This document shows positions 6,732 through 24,118 of a stretch of DNA of 25,829 nt, in pieces. The notes below the pieces were generated by a model. It had not been told where the DNA came from. It ran no database searches and saw only the letters and a list, made by a program, of their open reading frames with translations. Where the stretch lies: assembly GCA_964604735.1 (NCBI GenBank), contig CAZSBI010000099.1:1-25829 (forward strand), read 5' to 3'. Numbering within the stretch: position 1 is the stretch's first letter; the number at the start of each line of letters is the position of its first letter. A program made the position numbers and the translations under genes. Origin of the DNA: an uncultured Flavobacteriaceae bacterium (GTDB lineage: Bacteria > Bacteroidota > Bacteroidia > Flavobacteriales > Flavobacteriaceae).

Positions 6732-8348
6732 ATGAATTTATCTAAGTATCTATTCTTACTATTTTTGAATATATTATTTTCTGCCAATGCGCAATATGTC
6801 AATAAACAAAAAAACATTGTCGATATAATAGCCTACGAATTTACCATCGAAATAAATGACGAGCACAACGAAATATCGGCAGAAGCATTGATTCAACTAA
6901 AAGTATTACAAAAAACTGATTCTGTTTACTTGGATTTTGATAAGCTTGTTCATTCCGGAAAGGGAATGAAAATACAAAGTATTTCTCTCAATCAAAAGCA
7001 AAGTCCCAATTACAAACATATAGATGATAAAATTGTTTTTTACGACACTGAAAACTGGCATAACAAATCAAACATCTACTTGATTATCAGATATAAAGGT
7101 GTGCCAAAAGACGGTTTATATATCAGCCGGAATAAATACGGAAAACGTACTTTTTTTGGCGACAATTGGCCAAATCGGGCGCATTATTGGTTGCCTGTAA
7201 TCGATCATCCCTCAGATAAAGCAAAGGTAGCTTTTAGCATTATTGCCCCCAAACATTATCAAATAATTGCTACGGGTACAAAGCTTGGGCAAAATGATTA
7301 TCAGGATAAAATTGCGTGGCATTACCAAAGTTTGATTCCCATAAGTACAAAGGTAATGGTTTTTGCAGCCGCCGATTTTAAGGTGAAAAATTACCCCAAA
7401 GTATTGCTCTCCGAACAAAAATTGCCTATTAGCAGTTGGATTTATAAATCGTCGCCGGACGAAGGCTTTGACGATTACCGTTGTGCCATACGCGTTGTCA
7501 GTTTTTATGATAGTTTGGTCGGGCCGTACAGCTACGAAAAGTTAGCCAATGTACAGTCCAAAACACGTTTTGGCGGTATGGAAAACGCCGGCAATATTTT
7601 TTATGCCGAAAGCACGGTTGATGGCAGCAAAAGTGTAGAAAATTTAGTAGCGCACGAAGTGGCACATCAATGGTTTGGCAACTCGGTAAGCGAACAAAAT
7701 TGGTCGGATATTTGGCTTAGCGAAGGCTTTGCAACTTACCTAACCGATATGTATTTAGAACACAAATACGGCAAAGAAAAACTCAAAGAACGTATGGCAA
7801 TGGAACGCAATAAAGTTATTCGTTTTAACAGATACAATGCCAAACCCATTGTCTATAACGAACAAAGCCGATTGATGAATTTGCTCAACCCTAATTCCTA
7901 CGAAAAAGGCGCTTGGGTGTTGCATATGTTGCGTCAAAAAATGGGTGACGAAAACTTTGTTAAATCCCTGCGTGTTTTTTATCAAAAATACAGAAACAAA
8001 AACGCAAGCACTTCCGATTTTATTGATATAGTCGAAAATATTTCAAAACAAGATTTGCGAGGTTTTTTTAAACAATGGTTATATGTTGCAGGGCTGCCAA
8101 AACTAAAAATGTCTTATGCAATTGAAGGCAATACAATTACATTTGATGTGTTGCAACAGAATGCAAATCTTTATCAATTATCAATGCCTGTTAAAGTTAT
8201 TTTTGGAAATAATGCACAACTATTTAATTTAGAAATAAACCAAAAACAACAACAATTTAAGTTTAAACTTTTGGCGCCTGTTTCAGAAAAAGAAGCGCGA
8301 GTTCTTTTTGACCCAAATGTGCAAGTTTTGTTTGAATTGGCAGATTAA
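6732..8348 (+). CDS. M1-family zinc metallopeptidase (aminopeptidase N-like), secreted
   Basis: Gluzincin HEXXH-(18)-E motif (VAHEVAHQWFGN...WLSEGFATY) and the GxMEN exopeptidase motif (GGMENAG). Signal peptide MNLSKYLFLLFLNILFSANAQ from the ATG at 6732. Confidence 0.85.
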   Translation: MNLSKYLFLLFLNILFSANAQYVNKQKNIVDIIAYEFTIEINDEHNEISAEALIQLKVLQKTDSVYLDFDKLVHSGKGMKIQSISLNQKQSPNYKHIDDKIVFYDTENWHNKSNIYLIIRYKGVPKDGLYISRNKYGKRTFFGDNWPNRAHYWLPVIDHPSDKAKVAFSIIAPKHYQIIATGTKLGQNDYQDKIAWHYQSLIPISTKVMVFAAADFKVKNYPKVLLSEQKLPISSWIYKSSPDEGFDDYRCAIRVVSFYDSLVGPYSYEKLANVQSKTRFGGMENAGNIFYAESTVDGSKSVENLVAHEVAHQWFGNSVSEQNWSDIWLSEGFATYLTDMYLEHKYGKEKLKERMAMERNKVIRFNRYNAKPIVYNEQSRLMNLLNPNSYEKGAWVLHMLRQKMGDENFVKSLRVFYQKYRNKNASTSDFIDIVENISKQDLRGFFKQWLYVAGLPKLKMSYAIEGNTITFDVLQQNANLYQLSMPVKVIFGNNAQLFNLEINQKQQQFKFKLLAPVSEKEARVLFDPNVQVLFELAD

Positions 8349-8989
8349 TTCCTTAGTTTTTTCAAGCTAAATCCTTCAATATTTCTAATTCGTTGGTTTA
8401 TTAACGGCGATTTGATATCTTTAAAAAACACTTCATAAGTATCTTCAAAAAAAGTAAACGATGTGCCGTCTTTTCTGATACGTTTTGTATCTTTTTTGTA
8501 TAAAATTCCGATTTTGCCATCGACAACATCTTTCTTTTTCAGATAACCGATGATGGAAGCAATGGTTTCTTGACGTTTGTTTTCGTGCAAACTAATACAA
8601 TAATAGTAGTCGGTGATGCTGTCTTCGCGTTTGATATTCCGCGCGGGAATATTGAGCACATAATTTTCGTAAAAAACACTCGATTTACGATGCATTGTTT
8701 TCACGTCAATATTCATTAAAATACCGTTTGCGGTAATTTCGAAATCCTTACCATAGTCTTGTCCTTCGATATGCCCAAATGAACGCACCGGACGAGGCAA
8801 TCCGTATAAATCGGCAAATACAACTTCGCCCAAAGTGCCTGTTAATCGTAGCGCTTCGGTTTTATCTTTTTTTTGTGCGTCCCAAATATTTGCCACCGGA
8901 TGATGCTTTAAAGAATGAATAACCAAATCTTTTGTGTATTTTTTTTGCGCGTCACTGACCGGAATATCAAAATAAAATTGATTTTGCAT
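8345..8989 (-). CDS. hypothetical protein, possible PD-(D/E)xK nuclease-like fold
   Basis: Clean 214-aa ORF. Its stop overlaps the M1 gene stop (shared ttaa). It has its own terminator-separated transcription unit. The motif run E...DFEI...NIDVK is compatible with a PD-(D/E)xK signature, but no family was recognised. Confidence 0.45.
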   Translation of the reverse strand: MQNQFYFDIPVSDAQKKYTKDLVIHSLKHHPVANIWDAQKKDKTEALRLTGTLGEVVFADLYGLPRPVRSFGHIEGQDYGKDFEITANGILMNIDVKTMHRKSSVFYENYVLNIPARNIKREDSITDYYYCISLHENKRQETIASIIGYLKKKDVVDGKIGILYKKDTKRIRKDGTSFTFFEDTYEVFFKDIKSPLINQRIRNIEGFSLKKLRN

Positions 8990-9053
8990 ATCTTAAAAAC
9001 GTATTGAATAATAATGAGTTAAAGATAACACTTTTTTTATAACTTTTGTTGAC

Positions 9054-9090
9054 AAAAAAAAGCTGTCACTTTGTAGCGACAGCTTTGTTT
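9054..9090 (-). terminator. rho-independent terminator after the M13 peptidase gene (minus strand)
   Basis: On the minus strand: hairpin aaagctgtc / gacagcttt followed by T9. Confidence 0.7.
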
Positions 9091-9104
9091 AGATTTAATA
9101 TTTT

Positions 9105-11153
9105 TTACCAAATTTTCACGCGGTCTTCGGGTTTCATATACATACGGTCTCCTTCTTTAATATCGAAAGCTTTGTAAAACGCATCGACATTTTTGAGGGG
9201 TTGTGTAGCACGTATTTGTCCGGGACTGTGCGGGTCGGTTTTTATTTGTTTTTTAAGTGCTTCGTCTCTTGATTTGGTACGCCAAATAGTTGCCCAAGAA
9301 AGATAAAAGCGTTGTTCGGGAGTAAAACCTTGAATTTTGTCCGGTTTTTTGTGGTCTTTATAATACAATTGCAATGCCGTATAAGCAGCATTAACACCGC
9401 CTAAATCGCCAATATTTTCGCCTGAGGTAAATTCGCCGTTTACAAAAATATTTGGCAGAGGTTCTAATTTGCTATACTGATCGGCAAGTTTTTTGACCAA
9501 AACATTAAATTGCTCAAAATCTTGATTTGTCCACCATTGTTCAAAATTTCCTTCGGCATTAAATTTAGCTCCTTGATCGTCAAATCCGTGCGAAATTTCG
9601 TGTCCGATTACGGCGCCCATTCCTCCGTAATTGACAGCTTCATCGGCTTTGTAATCATAAAAAGGTGCTTGTAAAATAGCAGCAGGAAAAACAATTTCAT
9701 TATAAGAGGGATTGTAGTAGGCATTGACTATTTGCGGTGCCATTCCCCATTCGGTTTTATCGACAGGTTTGTTTAGTTTGGCAATATTTTCTTCAAAATG
9801 CCATTTAGAAACACGCAGGCTGTTATCAAAATACGAACCGCCGTCTTTGATTGCTAAAATTTGCAGTTTGCTATAATCTTTCCATTTGTCAGGATAGCCT
9901 ATTTTAATTTGTAAGGCATTTACTTTTTCAATGGCTTTTTTCTTGGTTTCATCGCTCATCCAAGTTAAATTATTGATGCGTTGTCTGTAAGCTTTTTGCA
10001 AGTAGTTAATCATCTCCTTAGCTTTGGTTTTGGCTTCGGGAGGGAACATTTTGTCAACATACAGTTTGCCTACGGCTTCGCCGATTGACCAATTAACCGT
10101 TGCCAAGGCACGTTCTTCCAAGGGACGACGTTCCTTTAAACCATCGAGTGTTTTGCCGTAAAACTCCCAATTGGCATCAGATATTTCCGGACTTAATTTG
10201 TCGGCTGTACTTCGTAACAAGTGCCAAGTTAAAAAATCTTTGATAATATCAATTTTCTCGTTTTTGTACAACGTATTGAAGGTTTTTAAATAATTGGGTT
10301 GCGTAACAATTACTTTTTCGACATTAAGATGAAAAGCCTTCAAATAATTTTTAAGGTCAAAATCGGGCATAAGATTTGCTAATTGCTCAACCGTCATCGG
10401 ATTGTAAGTATTTTCGGGTTTACGCCTTTCTTCTTTGGTCAATTTTGCTTGTGCCAACTTGGTTTCGAGTGCTAAAATATTATTTTTTGCTTGGGTTATT
10501 TCGGCATCTGTTTTTCCGATAAATTTCAGCATTTTACCGATATGTTCTTGGTATTGCGCTCTGATTTTTTTAGCATCATCAGTATCAGAAACATAGTAAT
10601 CGCGCTCGGGCAGCCCTAGTCCGGAAGGGGATAAGTACAATACATTTTTTGTGCTGTTTTTCATATCGGCGCCAACGCCAATTCCCATAAAAACAGAACT
10701 TAATACCGGTTCTGTTTCAATCATATATTGTGCTACATCTTGTTTGTTTTGTATAGCGTTGATTTTGTCTAAAAAAGGTTTTATCGGCTTAATTCCTTCT
10801 TTTGTTCTTTGTTGTATATCCATTATAGAAGCAAAATAATCGAGTGCCTTACGTTGGTCGCTTCCGGCTTTGTAAGCGGTATTTTTTTGCGCTTCTTTCA
10901 AAATTTTCAGGGTGTTTTTGTCAGTATTTTTGCGCAATTCGTCAAAACTGCCCCAACGTGAACGGTCTGCCGGAATTTTGGTGTTTTTCATCCATTCTCC
11001 ATTTACAAAATTGTAAAAATCGTCTTGTGGTCTGATGCTTTTATCCATAAATTCTAAATTTAATCCTATGGGTTGTTGTTTCTTGTTTGAATGATTTTGT
11101 TGACAACTTGTAAATAAAATCAATATAAGCAATAAGATTGATAAGTTTTTCAT
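9105..11153 (-). CDS. pepO: M13-family zinc metalloendopeptidase (PepO/neprilysin-like), lipoprotein
   Basis: HEXXH (VIGHEISHGFDD), the downstream ENIGDLGG (ExxxD) motif and an NAYY motif. Lipoprotein signal MKNLSILLLILILFTSC. Confidence 0.9.
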   Translation of the reverse strand: MKNLSILLLILILFTSCQQNHSNKKQQPIGLNLEFMDKSIRPQDDFYNFVNGEWMKNTKIPADRSRWGSFDELRKNTDKNTLKILKEAQKNTAYKAGSDQRKALDYFASIMDIQQRTKEGIKPIKPFLDKINAIQNKQDVAQYMIETEPVLSSVFMGIGVGADMKNSTKNVLYLSPSGLGLPERDYYVSDTDDAKKIRAQYQEHIGKMLKFIGKTDAEITQAKNNILALETKLAQAKLTKEERRKPENTYNPMTVEQLANLMPDFDLKNYLKAFHLNVEKVIVTQPNYLKTFNTLYKNEKIDIIKDFLTWHLLRSTADKLSPEISDANWEFYGKTLDGLKERRPLEERALATVNWSIGEAVGKLYVDKMFPPEAKTKAKEMINYLQKAYRQRINNLTWMSDETKKKAIEKVNALQIKIGYPDKWKDYSKLQILAIKDGGSYFDNSLRVSKWHFEENIAKLNKPVDKTEWGMAPQIVNAYYNPSYNEIVFPAAILQAPFYDYKADEAVNYGGMGAVIGHEISHGFDDQGAKFNAEGNFEQWWTNQDFEQFNVLVKKLADQYSKLEPLPNIFVNGEFTSGENIGDLGGVNAAYTALQLYYKDHKKPDKIQGFTPEQRFYLSWATIWRTKSRDEALKKQIKTDPHSPGQIRATQPLKNVDAFYKAFDIKEGDRMYMKPEDRVKIW

Positions 11154-15280: not shown

Positions 15281-16180
15281 ATGTTTTTATCGGTAATTAT
15301 TTGCACTTACAATCGCGACCAACACATAGCGCGCGCCCTACAAAGTTTAGTGGCACAAGATTATGATAGAAGCGATTTTGAAATTATCGTTGTCGATAAC
15401 AATTCGACCGATAAAACTCCGGAAATAATAGCCGATTTTAAAGCCAATCACCCCGATTATAATATTGTTTTGAGCAAAGAAACCCGACAAGGATTGTCTT
15501 ACGCACGCAACAAAGGCATTGACTTGGCACGAGGTACTTATCTGTCATATATTGATGACGATGGTATTGCCAAACCCGATTATATTTCGCAAATAAAAAA
15601 ATATACCGAGCAATATCCCGAATATTTTGCCTTAGGCGGAAAGGTATTGCCTACCTACGAAACCAAAGAAGAACCCGCTTGGATGAGTTCGTATATCGAA
15701 CGTATTATTTCGGTTGTCGATTTGGGCGATGAGGTCAAAGAATTACCCAAAATTTATCCGGTAGGTTGCAATATGATTTTTAAGAAAGAAATTTTCGATC
15801 GCGTTGGCGGATTTAATACCGAGTTAAAACTACGTTCCGATGACAAATATATATTTCTGAAAATCAGACAAGAAGGCTACAAAGTCCTGTATCTGCCCAA
15901 AGTCGTCGTTTGGCACTATATAGATGCTTTTCGTACTACTGCCGAATATGTCAAAAAAGTTAGTTTGCTCAATGGCGAAGCCGAATATACCCGAATAAAA
16001 TCGACCGGAAAGAATTACCGTTGGTCAATGATGGCACGCCTTTTCGATTATTTGTTTAAAGTAAGCGCCAGCCTGATTTTATGGTTGCTTTTTGCATTAA
16101 AAGGACAAAATATCAAAGGCAAAATGTTGTTTATCTCACTTTGGAAACAATTTACCGGGTTTGTAAGATCTCCTAAGTAA
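15281..16180 (+). CDS. family 2 glycosyltransferase
   Basis: N-terminus typical of GT-A/GT2: SVIICTYNR, VVDNNSTD and a DDD motif (YIDDDG). Confidence 0.85.
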   Translation: MFLSVIICTYNRDQHIARALQSLVAQDYDRSDFEIIVVDNNSTDKTPEIIADFKANHPDYNIVLSKETRQGLSYARNKGIDLARGTYLSYIDDDGIAKPDYISQIKKYTEQYPEYFALGGKVLPTYETKEEPAWMSSYIERIISVVDLGDEVKELPKIYPVGCNMIFKKEIFDRVGGFNTELKLRSDDKYIFLKIRQEGYKVLYLPKVVVWHYIDAFRTTAEYVKKVSLLNGEAEYTRIKSTGKNYRWSMMARLFDYLFKVSASLILWLLFALKGQNIKGKMLFISLWKQFTGFVRSPK

Positions 16181-16352
16181 GGGGACGCTTGAAGTTGGAA
16201 GTCCGAAGACGGAAGACCGAAGTCCGAAAGAAGGGAAAAGGGACGAGGGAAAAGGTAAAAGTGCGGTTGAAGACCGAAGACGGAAGACCGAAGTCGGAAG
16301 TTCGAAGTAGGTCACTGTCCCGACAAGCCAACAGCCAACAGCCAACAGCCAC
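16181..16352 (+). repeat. GC/purine-rich intergenic repeat element, copy A. Contains GAAGNNN heptad arrays and a CCAACAG x3 microsatellite.
   Basis: Starts directly after the GT2 stop codon. Contains gaagttg gaagtcc gaagacg gaagacc gaagtcc, then gggaaaagggacgagggaaaagg, then six more heptads, then taggtcactgtcccgacaag, then ccaacag x3. It is about 85% identical to the reverse complement of 21797-21916. Confidence 0.85.
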
Positions 16353-16377
16353 TTCTCATTCATATAAAAAAATAACG

Positions 16378-16385
16378 TAAATTTG
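16378..16385 (+). promoter_or_regulatory. candidate -7 box (TAnnTTTG) for the 16402 operon
   Basis: TAAATTTG lies 16 nt upstream of the ATG at 16402, just after the repeat. Confidence 0.3.
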
Positions 16386-16401: not shown

Positions 16402-17274
16402 ATGCAATTACTACTCGTCATACAAGCATTTTTTGAACAATTCATTCAGAGCGCAGCGACGCTTATCAAAGTATTATTGTTGAGCAAATCGAACGAAAAG
16501 CCGCCGGGGCCAAAACATAACGAATTGGTTATTTTGGGAAATGGTCCATCGTTAAAAGATTTTTTGACTTATCATAGAAAATTCTTAAAAGATAAAGCGA
16601 GTTTGGCAGTCAATCATTTTGCCGATTCAGATGCCTTTGTCGAAATACAACCCGATTATTACTTGATCAATGTTCCCGAATTTTGGACAGATAATGTCGA
16701 TGATGATGTGCGCCAAAGACGCGACAAATTAGTCAAAAATATCATCGAAAAAACACAATGGCAAATGACGCTTTTCTTAGGCGTAGGCGCCAAAAAATCG
16801 AAGCTTTGGCAAGAGATATCTAAGCAAAACAAGCAGATAAATATCTATTATCTCAATCCGACACCCGTTGCCGGATACGCTTGGTTTAGACACTTCTGCT
16901 ACCGAAAACAGTGCGGTATGCCTCGTCCGCACAATGTGCTAATTCCCTCTTTATTGATGAGTATCAATATGCAATTCGGCAAAATATTCATCACCGGTGC
17001 AGACCATAATTGGATGAAAGAATTATTTGTAGCCGATGACAATACGGTTTATCTTACCCAAAAACATTTTTACGATTTGCAAACCGCTCGCCCCGATGTG
17101 ATGAAAAAAACGGGAAAAGGCAAGCGTAAAATGCACGAAATATTGATTAAATTTGTACATAGCTTTGCCGGATATTTCGATATAAACAACTATGCCAAAT
17201 CACAAAACGTCCGGATTATCAATATCACCCCCGACTCGTTTATAGATGCTTTTGAAAGAATGAAATTAGATTAA
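16402..17274 (+). CDS. CstII/MptE-like (DUF115, GT42-like sialyltransferase fold) protein, putative glycosyltransferase
   Basis: VILGNGPSLKDF matches the IIAGNGPSL motif of CstII-type enzymes. A second conserved block, IFITGADHNW, corresponds to the LSGIDFY region. Confidence 0.5.
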   Translation: MQLLLVIQAFFEQFIQSAATLIKVLLLSKSNEKPPGPKHNELVILGNGPSLKDFLTYHRKFLKDKASLAVNHFADSDAFVEIQPDYYLINVPEFWTDNVDDDVRQRRDKLVKNIIEKTQWQMTLFLGVGAKKSKLWQEISKQNKQINIYYLNPTPVAGYAWFRHFCYRKQCGMPRPHNVLIPSLLMSINMQFGKIFITGADHNWMKELFVADDNTVYLTQKHFYDLQTARPDVMKKTGKGKRKMHEILIKFVHSFAGYFDINNYAKSQNVRIINITPDSFIDAFERMKLD

Positions 17275-17284
17275 TTTTGTATAT

Positions 17285-17560
17285 TTGCTTATGCACAAAG
17301 TCGAAAACATACAAGAACATAAACATCTTTTTTGGGATACAAATATTGATAATATTGACCTTGAAAAGCATTCAAGATTTATTATTGAACGCGTGGTAAT
17401 GCGTGGAAATATCTCCGATTGGAAATGGATGCGACAGATTTACAGTAAAGAAATAATTAGCCGAAAAATAGTTGAAATAAGATATTTAGACCAAAAAACA
17501 TTATCATTTCTAAGTGTTATTTATAAAATTCCGAAAGAACAATTCAGATGCTATTCTTAG
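17285..17560 (+). CDS. small conserved partner protein of the AbiEii-family NTase (putative antitoxin-like component)
   Basis: 91-aa ORF (FWDTNIDNIDLEKHSRFIIERV...IPKEQF). Its 3' end overlaps the start of the downstream NTase gene by 13 nt, suggesting translational coupling. It resembles the short proteins commonly found upstream of AbiEii-like genes in Bacteroidota. Confidence 0.5.
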   Translation: MLMHKVENIQEHKHLFWDTNIDNIDLEKHSRFIIERVVMRGNISDWKWMRQIYSKEIISRKIVEIRYLDQKTLSFLSVIYKIPKEQFRCYS

Positions 17561-18186
17561 AAACTATACATAGAGACACATTCAATTTACTTCAAAAAAT
17601 CTCACAAATTGAAGCATTTGATAATTTTGCATTAGCCGGTGGTACTGCATTAGCTTTGCAGTTGGGCCATCGTATTTCCATAGACTTAGATTTTTTTACA
17701 CAAGAAGAATTTGATTCTGAAAATTTAAAATTATTGATTGAAAACCATTTTGAAGCTATAAATTTTGCAACAGACAAAAATAGTTTGTCAGCTTATATTA
17801 AACACGAGTCTGCTACTGTAAAAGTTGATTTTATTAGACATAACTATCCGGCATTTCACAAAATAATTAATAAGGATAATATTAGAATGTATGCCTTAGA
17901 AGAAATTGTTGCAATGAAACTTAATGCTATAAAAAATAGAGGGGCTAAAAAAGATTTTTACGATATTTATGAAATATTACAGCATTATTCCGTAGCAACA
18001 ATAATCGAATGGTATCTTCAAAAATATCAAAACTTAAATTTATTAATGTTACTAAAAAGTTTGACATATTTTGTAGATGCAGATAATGAACCAAATCCAA
18101 TTAGTTTAAGAAATATTTCTTGGGATGTTATAAAAAAACAGATTTCAATAAAAACAGAAAATTATATAGATGCACAAACTAAATAA
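17548..18186 (+). CDS. nucleotidyltransferase, AbiEii/AbiGii toxin family (DUF1814), minimal 212-aa form
   Basis: N-terminal NTase signature AGGTALALQLGHRISIDLDFF (GGTAL...R.S.DLD). Confidence 0.7.
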   Translation: MLFLETIHRDTFNLLQKISQIEAFDNFALAGGTALALQLGHRISIDLDFFTQEEFDSENLKLLIENHFEAINFATDKNSLSAYIKHESATVKVDFIRHNYPAFHKIINKDNIRMYALEEIVAMKLNAIKNRGAKKDFYDIYEILQHYSVATIIEWYLQKYQNLNLLMLLKSLTYFVDADNEPNPISLRNISWDVIKKQISIKTENYIDAQTK

Positions 18187-21631: not shown

Positions 21632-21796
21632 TGGTCAATTTTTCATTTAATAAAATTGCAAATTGTTTATACAAAAAACAAGCTTTCAAAATTAACACCT
21701 AAAACGGCTTTTGGTCAAGTATTTAACAAAAATTTATCATTCCCCGACATTTTTACAGTTTATATGGCACAAAAAGCAGCTAAAACTGACGAAAAG

Positions 21797-21916
21797 ACAT
21801 TGTTGGTTGTTAGCTGTTGGCTTTTGGCTTATCGGGACAGTGACCTACTTCGGTCTTCCAACTTCAAACGCACTTTGTCCTTTTCCCTCGTCCCTTTTCC
21901 CTTTGTCCCTTGTCCC
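21797..21916 (-). repeat. intergenic repeat element, copy B (inverted relative to copy A)
   Basis: Read on the minus strand it starts directly after the TonB-dependent receptor stop codon. It reads gggacaagggacaaagggaaaagggacgagggaaaagg..aaagtgcgtttgaag ttggaag accgaag taggtcactgtcccgataagccaaaagccaacagctaacaaccaacaa. It has the same core as copy A but only 3 GAAGNNN heptads and a degenerate CCAACAG array. Confidence 0.85.
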
Positions 21917-24118
21917 TCAAAATTTTATATGCAAAGTCAATATTACATTAGACCCCATATCGGAAATATTCTTATCTCTAAGTACCGACAAATGATTTAT
22001 ATAATTGACATTCAGCGCATTGTGAACAGAAACATTTGTTGTCATCTTAACTTTTCCTATGTTTATATTAGCGCCTAAACTTGCATTAAGCAAAGTATAA
22101 GCAGGCATTTGTTTTTCGAAACTACTGACTTTGTCTGCTGCAAATGTGTGATTAATTCCGAAATTGAGATAATATTTTTTGATATATTTATGCGGATGTC
22201 TATTGGTCAATCTAATTTGATTTTTCCATTGGTTTGCCGGAATTAAAGGCAGATAATTTGCGTTTTGCAACATACCTGTTACGGTTTCAAAACTCGAACT
22301 GATATGCAACCAATCTAAAGGATGCGGATGCAAATGCAAGCCTGCTTCTCCTCCATATAAGTAGGCATTATTTTGTTGATAGGCGTACACCGGCAGGCTA
22401 TTTAGCATTCTATTTTGTGGTTGCAAATAAATATAATTGTTAATACGATTGTAAAAAGAATTGACAAAAAACTCGAAATGTGTACTCTCATATTCCAAAT
22501 TGGCATCAAACTGTATGTTTTGCTCATTTTGCAAACGCTCATTTCCAATTTCAACTCTATTGCCATGTGCACCATTTGAGGTTAATTCGGCTAAATTGGG
22601 TGCTCTAAATCCACTGGCAATATTTAATCGCAAATGTGTTTTTTTGTTAATATCCGTTTTCATTCCCAAAGCGCCCGTAAAACTGCCAAGGTTTTTCTCA
22701 ACGGCTTTTCTAAAATACATTTCACCTTGTTTGCCTACTTGTTTTGTTGAAATATGTCTATAATCGTAACGCATACCTGCTTGCCAAACAGTTTGTTTTT
22801 TTTGATAATTAATCGTCGTAAAAAGACCTATATTTTGCACATTGGCATCGGGAAGTAAGTAATGCTTGCCAAAATTATTGTTGTTTTGCCACATCGCTTG
22901 CACCCCGATAATGCTTTCAAAATATTTTCTTTTGGGCAAATAATATTTTGTATCAAGATTTAAAGTGTTGAGTTGCATTCCGATTTTATCAACCCCTTCC
23001 CATTTTAGAATACGTTTATGCGCCGTAAATCCGATATTGGTTTTGATTTTAGAACGGTCTAATTTGAACTCATTTTTTAGACTGATATTATGATTTGTAA
23101 CATCTTGATATTTGTCAAGCATTGTATAGTCTGCTTCCATGTTTTTAGTAGCCAAAGGCAATCCGTTTTGGGCATAATTGTAATTGTATCGCAGGTCGGT
23201 AGTGCGTTTATCGGTCTTGTTTCCCAAAGCTAATTTTACATCGGTCGAACGGTATCGTGAGTTAAAAACTCTCTTATCATCCGGCACTTGATAATCAGCA
23301 TTTATATTGTAGGCTATTCGTGATAAAAATTGCCATTCTTTGCCCGATGTTTTTACACCTGCGGTAGCATGTGCGCCTTGCGTATTGCTAAAATATTGCA
23401 TTTTTACATCGGCTTTTGTCTTGTTTTTAGAAGCAAATTTTTCGGGTACCAAATAAACCACGCCGCCCAAAGCGTCGGAGCCATACAATAATGAGGCGGG
23501 ACCTTTAATTACCTCGACACCATTGATGCCCGAAGGCTCTAATCCCATACCGTGAGCTTCGCCAAATTGAAAATTTTCGAGTCGTACACCTTGATTGTAA
23601 ATCAGCACTCTATTGCCTGTTAATCCGCGAATTACCGGCTTGCTGATCCCCGCTCCGGTACTCAATTTTGAAACGCCTGCCACTTGCGAAATGCCGTCCA
23701 TTAAATTTTGCACGCCTGAGCGTTCCATTGCCGCTACGCTTTTATGACTCACTTTCATCACGTTGTCTTTTTGCAATTTGTTAAAAGCAGTCGAGATGAT
23801 TACCTCATCCATTTCAAAAACATTTTCGTGCATTTGAATTTGAAGCACTTTTACGTTCTGATTAAATTTTACGATTTTAACAATATCTTTATATCCAACA
23901 TAAGTGAAGCGAATTTCCACTTCGGATTTTGCAATATTTTTGATGGTAAAATTTCCATCAATATCGCTTACTGTTCCTTTGTTTATTTTAGGAATCAAAA
24001 TGTTGACTCCTGCTAATTTTTCATTTGATTTAGCATCGGTTACGACACCTTTAATTGTATGTTGCGCTTGTGTATTTATTGTAGTAGCTATAATGAATAG
24101 CCATAATAATTTTTTCAT
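21917..24118 (-). CDS. TonB-dependent outer-membrane receptor with N-terminal carboxypeptidase-regulatory-like domain
   Basis: Signal peptide. CarbopepD_reg-like block (GVVTDAKSNEKLAGVNILI...GTVSDIDGNFTI). Plug and 22-strand barrel-like alternating pattern. C-terminal aromatic residue (…LHIKF). Confidence 0.85.
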   Translation of the reverse strand: MKKLLWLFIIATTINTQAQHTIKGVVTDAKSNEKLAGVNILIPKINKGTVSDIDGNFTIKNIAKSEVEIRFTYVGYKDIVKIVKFNQNVKVLQIQMHENVFEMDEVIISTAFNKLQKDNVMKVSHKSVAAMERSGVQNLMDGISQVAGVSKLSTGAGISKPVIRGLTGNRVLIYNQGVRLENFQFGEAHGMGLEPSGINGVEVIKGPASLLYGSDALGGVVYLVPEKFASKNKTKADVKMQYFSNTQGAHATAGVKTSGKEWQFLSRIAYNINADYQVPDDKRVFNSRYRSTDVKLALGNKTDKRTTDLRYNYNYAQNGLPLATKNMEADYTMLDKYQDVTNHNISLKNEFKLDRSKIKTNIGFTAHKRILKWEGVDKIGMQLNTLNLDTKYYLPKRKYFESIIGVQAMWQNNNNFGKHYLLPDANVQNIGLFTTINYQKKQTVWQAGMRYDYRHISTKQVGKQGEMYFRKAVEKNLGSFTGALGMKTDINKKTHLRLNIASGFRAPNLAELTSNGAHGNRVEIGNERLQNEQNIQFDANLEYESTHFEFFVNSFYNRINNYIYLQPQNRMLNSLPVYAYQQNNAYLYGGEAGLHLHPHPLDWLHISSSFETVTGMLQNANYLPLIPANQWKNQIRLTNRHPHKYIKKYYLNFGINHTFAADKVSSFEKQMPAYTLLNASLGANINIGKVKMTTNVSVHNALNVNYINHLSVLRDKNISDMGSNVILTLHIKF

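Follow-up and report, generated by a model that had tools for sequence, protein, structure and literature searches.

The stretch of DNA considered here comprises positions 1 to 25,829 of contig CAZSBI010000099.1 (GenBank assembly GCA_964604735.1), from an uncultured Flavobacteriaceae bacterium, and this whole stretch of 25,829 nucleotides is referred to below as the window. Its subject is a non-coding element composed of abutting 7-bp tandem arrays, which is present twice, once after a gene for a family-2 glycosyltransferase (GT2) and once after a gene for a TonB-dependent receptor. The window has a G+C content of 34.7%, carries a Por_Secre_tail protein and Bat-operon genes, and the nearest named homologues of its proteins belong to Lutibacter, Polaribacter and Flavobacterium, which places it in Bacteroidota and probably in Flavobacteriales.

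Copy A of the element occupies 16181-16352 (+) and copy B about 21800-21916 (-). The first base of copy A, 16181, lies directly 3' of the TAA of the GT2 gene, and the first base of copy B, 21916, lies directly 3' of the TGA of the receptor gene (21919-21917, -). The two copies are inverted to each other, are 5.5 kb apart, and each follows the direction of its upstream gene. A reading made earlier from the sequence only had placed both copies within 0-1 nt of an upstream stop codon, in the same orientation relative to that gene and with a purine-rich sense strand. The adjacency proves to be exact, since both copies start at the first base after the stop, and the shared orientation holds, with a purine share on the sense strand of the upstream gene of 69% and 71% for the two copies, which are the extremes of the whole window. 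The parts of copy A, with the flanking features, are as follows; L192 is an allele of the same site, and L006 and L132 are loci elsewhere that are described below.

16178-16180, + strand: TAA stop codon of the GT2 gene (15281-16180)
16181-16190, + strand: left end of copy A, GGGGACGCTT; allele L192 reads GGGGCGAGGGAAAAGTACGCTT at the same position
16191-16232, + strand: GAAGNNN array 1, consisting of GAAGTTG, GAAGTCC, GAAGACG, GAAGACC and GAAGTCC plus a degenerate GAAAGAA
16233-16255, + strand: G-rich heptad block GGGAAAAGGGACGAGGGAAAAGG, the same in copy B
16256-16272, + strand: linker TAAAAGTGCGGTTGAAG, a junction common to copy B, L006 and both L132 modules
16269-16310, + strand: GAAGNNN array 2, 6 units with starts from 16269 to 16304 (GAAGACC, GAAGACG, GAAGACC, GAAGTCG, GAAGTTC, GAAGTAG)
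16308-16327, + strand: non-repetitive linker TAGGTCACTGTCCCGACAAG, with one difference from copy B
16328-16352, + strand: three CCAACAG units (16328-16348) and CCAC, the right end of copy A
16378-16385, + strand: promoter-like motif TAAATTTG, 17 nt before an ATG at 16402

Copy B, listed in the direction of the receptor gene, has the following parts.

21917-21919, - strand: TGA stop codon of the TonB-dependent receptor gene (21917-24118)
21879-21916, - strand: left end of copy B, a G-rich heptad/octad block GGGACAAGGGACAAAGGGAAAAGGGACGAGGGAAAAGG
21862-21878, - strand: linker ACAAAGTGCGTTTGAAG, of which AAAGTGCGTTTGAAGTTGGAAGAC is identical in L006
21845-21865, - strand: GAAGNNN array of 3 units (GAAGTTG, GAAGACC, GAAGTAG)
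21828-21847, - strand: linker TAGGTCACTGTCCCGATAAG
21800-21827, - strand: decayed array CCAAAAG CCAACAG CTAACAA CCAACAA, the right end of copy B
21762-21828, - strand: weak hairpin, in which the decayed CCAACAG array pairs with the downstream CAGTTTTAGCTGCTTTT; TTTTTGTG comes next

Copy B displays the basic layout, in which a G-rich block of 7-8-nt units (GGGACAA GGGACAAA GGGAAAA GGGACGA GGGAAAAGG) leads through a linker to three GAAGNNN units, and from there through a second linker to a decayed CCAACAG array. Copy A runs from array 1 (five units, with exact starts at 16191, 16198, 16205, 16212 and 16219) through a G-rich core and a linker to array 2 (six units), and then through a further linker to three CCAACAG units. 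It is in effect an internally duplicated form of the copy B layout, the extra parts being an additional GAAGNNN array and a remnant left end before the G-rich block, so that the G-rich core sits between the two GAAG arrays. The left end is taken as a deleted remnant of a G-rich block and linker because allele L192 has GGGGCGAGGGAAAAGTACGCTT at that position. The unit counts given by the sequence-only reading, namely five and six GAAGNNN units with CCAACAG three times in copy A, and three GAAGNNN units with a decayed CCAACAG array in copy B, are those found.

The periodicity is marked, with a period of 7 reported by Tandem Repeats Finder at 16198-16351 and 21875-21917. A pattern of three consecutive GAAGNNN units (GAAGNNNGAAGNNNGAAG) has 8 matches in the window against 0.00 expected from 100 shuffles, and all 8 lie inside copies A and B. 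The copies are homologous (blastn E 3e-17 and 7e-14), sharing stretches of 62 nt at 89% identity and 56 nt at 88% identity that include the non-repetitive linkers AAAGTGCGKTTGAAG and TAGGTCACTGTCCCGA. Every unique linker is internal, with arrays on both sides. Past the CCAACAG array on the right, what aligns is AT-rich noise, with no homology. Copy B has five G3 tracts with loops of 4-5 nt and therefore contains a formal G-quadruplex (G4) motif, and copy A has only three G3 tracts and hence no canonical one. The motif as a reason for the family was rejected, as it is missing from most copies: the core of the L001 allele has no G3 tract, and L006 and L132 have GG tracts only. As a separate observation, many of the units at 16205-16224 and 16269-16294 contain GAAGAC, the recognition site of the type IIS enzyme BbsI/BpiI, and GAC and GTC triplets alternate there to give a 14-nt super-period.

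The open reading frames (ORFs) that cross the element are not genes. A 7-nt period shifts the reading frame at each unit. A Pfam search of these ORFs gave no match, and searching a protein database with their translations gave only weak matches, to other translated heptad arrays. LPTSDFR repeats, for example, are (GAAGTCG)n read backwards, and spurious proteins have been called across heptad arrays elsewhere (the LPTSDFR-repeat entries P0001-P0007). The K/R/E-rich ORF (16189-16380) and the LLAVG..GTVTYF ORFs, which the earlier reading had dismissed as translation artefacts, are indeed such, for they have no Pfam match, resemble only heptad arrays and lie in a region that is absent in relatives.

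Little indicates a structured RNA. In the window there was no Rfam match at the gathering score, and a permissive Rfam search returned nothing overlapping the element at E up to 10 for copy A or at E up to 1 for the related loci, the low-scoring chance matches falling outside the element. Folding both strands of copies A and B and of the L001 allele gave no structure that beats shuffles (z -1.5 to +1.6). A stable palindrome of the repetitive extragenic palindrome (REP) or bacterial interspersed mosaic element type is not supported, as the folds of both copies are no better than shuffles. An antisense G-U pairing of (GGCUGUU)n with (CGGUCUU)n was dropped, since it reaches a z of no more than -1.5 and copy B does not preserve it. 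Neither copy has a terminator-like site. Copy A has neither a hairpin nor a U-run, and the hairpin at copy B (-12.6 kcal/mol, z -1.2) is not significant and is a mere candidate for the terminator of the receptor gene, whose product ends ..HIKF and is equal in length to that of a 73% relative. The suggestion that the element is a termination module thus becomes unlikely: it has no terminator-like site and no fold above shuffles, and copy A lies within what is a tight gene pair in relatives.

The hallmarks of known mobile elements are likewise missing. Neither copy is bracketed by terminal inverted repeats, a comparison of filled and empty sites reveals no flank duplicated as a target site, and no transposase, integrase or reverse transcriptase gene was found near the copies in the window. 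A BLAST search of plasmid and phage collections with the element gave no match. A MITE, or miniature transposable element with inverted repeats, was rejected because both terminal inverted repeats and a target-site duplication are missing. A diversity-generating retroelement was rejected as well, as the window lacks a reverse transcriptase, both copies lie outside coding regions, and the differences include indels and C/G-to-T/A changes. The identities of CRISPR, REP and intrinsic terminator were rejected too.

Public metagenome contigs that encode a GT2 99-100% identical to the GT2 of the window supply further alleles. Three are found at the GT2 site, namely that of the window, that of L001/L002 and that of L192, which directly supports the earlier proposal of slipped-strand copy-number change, and recombinational change besides. 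The intergenic length after GT2 is 221 nt in the window allele against 164 nt in the L001/L002 allele, which is missing 71 bp, from a point in one GAAG array to the equivalent point in the other, and with them the G-rich core; the L001 allele also has two more CCAACAG units, plus CCAATAG. Recombination between array 1 and array 2 probably accounts for the L001 allele, shorter by 71 bp. The L192 allele has the left end GGGGCGAGGGAAAAGTACGCTTGAAG..., followed by different heptads. Two of the allele contigs terminate within a heptad array (L002 3569-3621 and L192 5227-5289).

More distant relatives do not have the element. In GT2 orthologues at 77-78% identity the same downstream gene follows after 18 nt and 54 nt (L193, L196) with no repeat, and no 7-nt arrays occur in about 25 kb of sequence from these relatives. 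The element is absent from an 83% GT2 relative, L203 and L205 contain no heptad arrays, and in a 73% relative of the TonB receptor the stop is followed by no repeat. The element most likely arose recently in one Flavobacteriales-like lineage. GT2 ends ..SPK* only in the element-bearing lineage (16169-16180), and in all relatives at 77-86% identity it ends ..KPKF* or ..RPKF* (L193, L196, L203) and is one codon longer. Since the gene ends one codon earlier than in all relatives, the left edge of the element coincides with a remodelled gene end from which the terminal Phe codon has been lost.

In relatives GT2 and the gene downstream are merely 18-54 nt apart and hence probably co-transcribed. 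The gene downstream of copy A may possess its own promoter, as we take TAAATTTG at 16378-16385 to fit the Bacteroidetes -7 promoter consensus TAnnTTTG; an insert that brings its own promoter is speculative. Two observations concern the wider surroundings. A gene pair encoding DUF6922 and AbiEii (type IV toxin-antitoxin) lies at 17285-18186, between a 290-aa gene and a DUF58 gene, where the G+C content falls to 0.22-0.30, and it looks like an insertion of ~0.9 kb because the 290-aa and DUF58 genes adjoin in L193 and L196. L193, the 78% relative, has a tyrosine-recombinase (Phage_integrase) gene at 99-1481, just upstream of the conserved GT2 cluster, which hints that the GT2 neighbourhood is a variable region.

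Beyond the window, a module made of purine heptads, GGTAAAAGTGCGKTTGAAG and GAAG-W-Y-S heptads recurs in L132 and L006. L132 is a Prolixibacteraceae genome with two modules, the first of which is in sense orientation and starts 14 nt downstream of where a FabH-like gene stops. L006 is a metagenome contig with one module upstream of nuoB and an ORF that ends just before the module. The module apparently lies 0-14 nt after that stop, the upstream ORF being merely a 33-codon frame open to the contig end, and for this reason its identity as NuoA was set aside. The stop adjacency and the orientation postulated for the window copies thus extend to L132, and probably to L006, and the purine strand is the sense strand in all 4-5 copies of the family seen. 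An exact 20-mer of the unique linker has no match in 185,579 species genomes, and in the JGI metagenomes it matches only the source strain and, by chance, one coding sequence (L004). The family junction searched in IMG/VR gave one chance coding match (L129) with a first pattern and none with a second. L006, L007 and L008 were reached through weak matches to six-frame artefact peptides.

Two of these loci have features of their own. In L006 (-, about 3215-3170) and in L132 at 2122-2200 a further common block, GACCCTGAAATGCCTGTTCYGAAGGATTTCGGAAKGTC..., lies downstream of the heptads. It contains a 7-bp hairpin, TTCCGAA-GGAT-TTCGGAA, in which a C-to-U change keeps the pairing through G-U; the block has no Rfam match and is not present in the window. 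L007 has, at 8170-9490 of a 660-kb contig, a 1.3-kb region between divergent genes with higher-order repeats of 141-286 bp, in which a GAAG-W-Y-S array has a conserved flank on either side (..GGTGCTTTTGGTGCTTTGGTGGTAAAAGGG [array] GATGACGATCCTTTTGCA..). It uses the same heptad "dialect" as the window, whereas the linkers and the context are different.

Heptad arrays as a class are much more widespread than the family. In IMG/VR alone, a pattern of five GAAGNNN units matches more than 120 stretches; their unit types are numerous and, among the matches listed, the G+C content runs from 24% to 73%. A junction-anchored pattern was found in 62 genomes spread over many phyla; in many cases a stop codon stood immediately before the match, and in many an inverted array came after it. 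Position and orientation statistics rest on crude gene calls and refer to the IMG/VR sample, among the matches listed. Orientation of GAAGNNN arrays is mixed there, with 105 gene ends that are purine-sense and 85 that are pyrimidine-sense. Purine-sense arrays between same-direction genes have a median relative position of 0.20, with 40 of 58 in the upstream half (p = 0.005) and 23 of 58 within 10 nt of the upstream stop, whereas pyrimidine-sense arrays have no positional bias (median 0.46, n = 39). Where units end in T, TGAAG itself supplies the stop, which explains much of the difference in flushness between purine- and pyrimidine-sense arrays; where they do not, 17 of 53 purine-sense and 9 of 46 pyrimidine-sense arrays lie within 10 nt of a stop. 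The expectation of a consistent orientation by stop codons therefore stands for the mere 4-5 family members seen and is borne out only weakly by the broad sample. Hugging of gene 3' ends is a general property of the heptad-array class; strict orientation is not.

In a number of phyla a heptad array after a gene is followed by an inverted copy. This arrangement is seen in Acidobacteriota, Planctomycetota, Cyanobacteria, Chryseobacterium and others (L131, L135/L151/L176, L150, L153, L156, L174, L188/L189; L032, L033, L107, L111). Such a pair forms a long hairpin with 7-nt-periodic arms, which may be an expandable terminator stem.

The element is best read as a non-coding heptamer-repeat assemblage, made of GGGAMRA, GAAG-W-Y-S and CCAACAG arrays with two short unique linkers. 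On balance it is probably a hypermutable repeat island at the DNA level, tolerated in the 3' flanks of genes and transcribed passively. It would act on DNA and not through a product, with replication slippage adding or removing units and unequal recombination between internal arrays deleting or duplicating whole blocks. Since each linker has arrays on both sides, linkers could be moved between loci by ectopic recombination, and the arrays probably supply the homology for this copying. We infer that slippage and ectopic recombination are the processes that generate and disperse the element. The island would persist only where it is harmless, that is from the upstream stop codon to the promoter or leader of the next gene, and its transcript would most likely be an unstructured purine-rich tail or intercistronic spacer. 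Selective tolerance is what we infer to be the reason for its position, and its transcription would be passive. Several points weigh against this. Slippage grows an array from within and leaves its edge unmoved, so that neither the exact +1 start after both stops nor the loss of exactly the last GT2 codon is explained by it. The purine strand is the sense strand in all 4-5 members, and the window copies are inverted, hence orientation follows transcription and not replication. The 19-nt junction is conserved between the Flavobacteriales-like organism and the genome from Prolixibacteraceae, a hint of selection or of horizontal mobility. With so small a number of copies, no single one of these points decides the matter.

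The same points give some room to other explanations. The element may be a functional 3' untranslated region (3'-UTR) or intercistronic module, in which the purine heptads are a multivalent pad for a protein that binds single-stranded RNA, such as S1, a cold-shock protein or an RRM-1 protein of the RbpB kind. Once bound, this protein would adjust how stable the flanking cistrons are or how well they are translated, and the number of units would set the dose. The sense-strand orientation of all family copies fits this, as do the junction common to two Bacteroidota lineages and a sequence that is unstructured, as such platforms are. RbpB of B. thetaiotaomicron binds a triple repeat of GUAGGAUA (bioRxiv 10.1101/2021.04.27.441718), and the element has GUAGGUCA, although the resemblance to the RbpB motif appears weak. 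CspB offers a precedent with one protein per heptamer, as mentioned in PMC4679880, and the heptamer repeats of Xanthomonas are mostly transcribed (PMC4692102). Such a role is nevertheless unlikely, as the flanking genes do not need the element, which is absent in relatives at 73-83% identity, and otherwise identical strains have whole-block allele differences with loss of the G-rich core. Unlikely to much the same degree is a non-autonomous mobile or copy-paste element that prefers stop codons or gene 3' ends, with the arrays as secondary expansions inside it. Both window copies lie at +1, with L006 apparently 0-14 nt and L132 14 nt after a stop; the last GT2 codon is lost where the element begins, as if TTT-stop had been replaced; empty sites in relatives are clean, separate loci have non-repetitive linkers in common, and 23 of the 58 purine-sense arrays in tandem context lie <=10 nt from the upstream stop, among the matches listed. 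The missing terminal inverted repeats, recognisable target-site duplication and nearby transposase, integrase or reverse transcriptase speak against it, as does the lack of a match in the plasmid and phage collections. Moreover, the ends of the copies are variable arrays and not defined termini, and the flushness in the broad sample, among the matches listed, comes largely from arrays whose units supply the stop.

A strand-specific barrier, in which antisense RNA would load Rho while the sense transcript passes, or in which G4 or H-DNA formed by G-rich or polypurine DNA would act on polymerases, is improbable. The antisense transcript is pyrimidine-rich (33% C against 21% G) and unstructured, though its C/G ratio of about 1.6 is modest and we know of no antisense promoter. 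Sense orientation is compatible with read-through into same-strand downstream genes in all four contexts, but for arrays in general either orientation is found. Five G3 tracts are present in copy B, and related G-rich heptamers form G4 in vitro, with transcripts starting or stopping there more often than at controls (PMC4692102), yet the motif is absent from copy A, the L001 allele, L006 and L132. The least likely explanation, and a very improbable one, is an intrinsic terminator or a small RNA derived from the 3'-UTR. The position directly after stop codons, the weak hairpin of copy B followed by TTTTTGTG, and the many heptad arrays of other phyla that form long post-gene hairpins with an inverted copy would agree with it. 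Against these stand the absence of a terminator-like site from either copy, a z of only -1.2 for the copy B hairpin, a copy A without hairpin or U-run, the lack of an Rfam match and the place of copy A inside a gene pair that is tight in relatives. On a further reading the family could be a genuine 3'-end module, a composite heptamer element that some orientation-specific mechanism copies to exactly position +1 behind the stop, in some cases at the expense of the final codon. It would act in the transcript, for example as a tunable multivalent tail for proteins or as an insulator that loads Rho on antisense RNA and lets sense transcription pass, with the number of heptads as a fast-evolving rheostat. 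This is quite unlikely; if true, the stop-hugging heptamer arrays across bacterial phyla would share one unrecognised mechanism.

The locus is a clean natural experiment, with three alleles in near-identical strains, empty sites in relatives, inverted copies that follow their genes and an exact stop junction with a lost codon. It makes testable in Flavobacteriia whether heptad arrays are merely products of slippage that are put up with or are brought to gene 3' ends and have a use there, and whether they affect the co-transcription of neighbours. There is also a practical side, since heptad islands interrupt metagenome assemblies and give rise, in protein databases, to false ORFs like the LPTSDFR ones.

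Of the long simple repeats in bacterial genomes, heptanucleotide arrays are the most over-represented, and neither their function nor their origin has been explained. In most prokaryotic genomes no other long simple repeat is as abundant, and polymerase slippage has been given as the cause (Mrazek, Guo and Shah 2007, as cited in PMC4679880 and PMC4692102). As far as those citing papers describe them, these repeats are like the element in being of period 7, intergenic, non-coding and length-variable, whereas the element is a dispersed family with composite unit types and conserved linkers and not a single pure array. For the GGGNATC and GGGGAYT heptamers of Xanthomonas and Nostoc, the mean distance is 28 nt to the ORF upstream and 160 nt to the one downstream. 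When on the sense strand they are mostly 0-50 bp from the stop or overlap it; they are mostly intergenic, between same-direction genes, vary in length in close relatives and are not known to have a function (Rehm et al. 2015, PMC4692102). The element similarly has heptamers with G3 runs, and both of its copies lie on the sense strand and start at +1 after a stop. Its units, however, are GGGACAA, GGGAAAA and GGGACGA and not GGGNATC or GGGGAYT, its phylum is different, and four G3 tracts are reached only in copy B. In addition, two species of Xanthomonas have kept their repeats between the same genes (PMC4692102), whereas the element is absent from relatives.

The unit sequences of the element were not found in the literature. 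In cyanobacteria, the STRR (short tandemly repeated repetitive) sequences of Mazel et al. 1990 are said to be tandem heptanucleotides dispersed in intergenic DNA, and their unit is reportedly CAACAGT, one base from a rotation of CCAACAG. The element belongs to a different phylum and has no linkers in common with them. Three tandem heptanucleotides are mentioned for Calothrix PCC 7601 in PMC4692102. Within Bacteroidota, Porphyromonas gingivalis has a MITE with an internal minisatellite (PMC4596501), a repeat that like the element is small, dispersed and non-coding and has a tandem array inside it. Terminal inverted repeats and target-site duplications are features of MITEs, however, and the element has neither.

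A close parallel in form comes from the intergenic heptamer assemblages of Gramella forsetii, Aequorivita sublithincola and Elizabethkingia anophelis, which are absent from close relatives and break assemblies (MacGregor 2015, PMC4679880). These were compared with the element by their published description. In both cases several different arrays stand side by side in one intergenic region, close relatives keep the gene neighbours but have less DNA between them, separate loci carry nearly identical assemblages, and contigs of draft genomes stop within them (PMC4679880). That work set out from TAACTGA units, mostly upstream of start codons, whereas the element is made of other units and lies flush after stops. 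The element nevertheless has all the tested features of heptamer assemblages, in that it consists of tandem 7-nt units, is non-coding and intergenic, is polymorphic and is absent from relatives.

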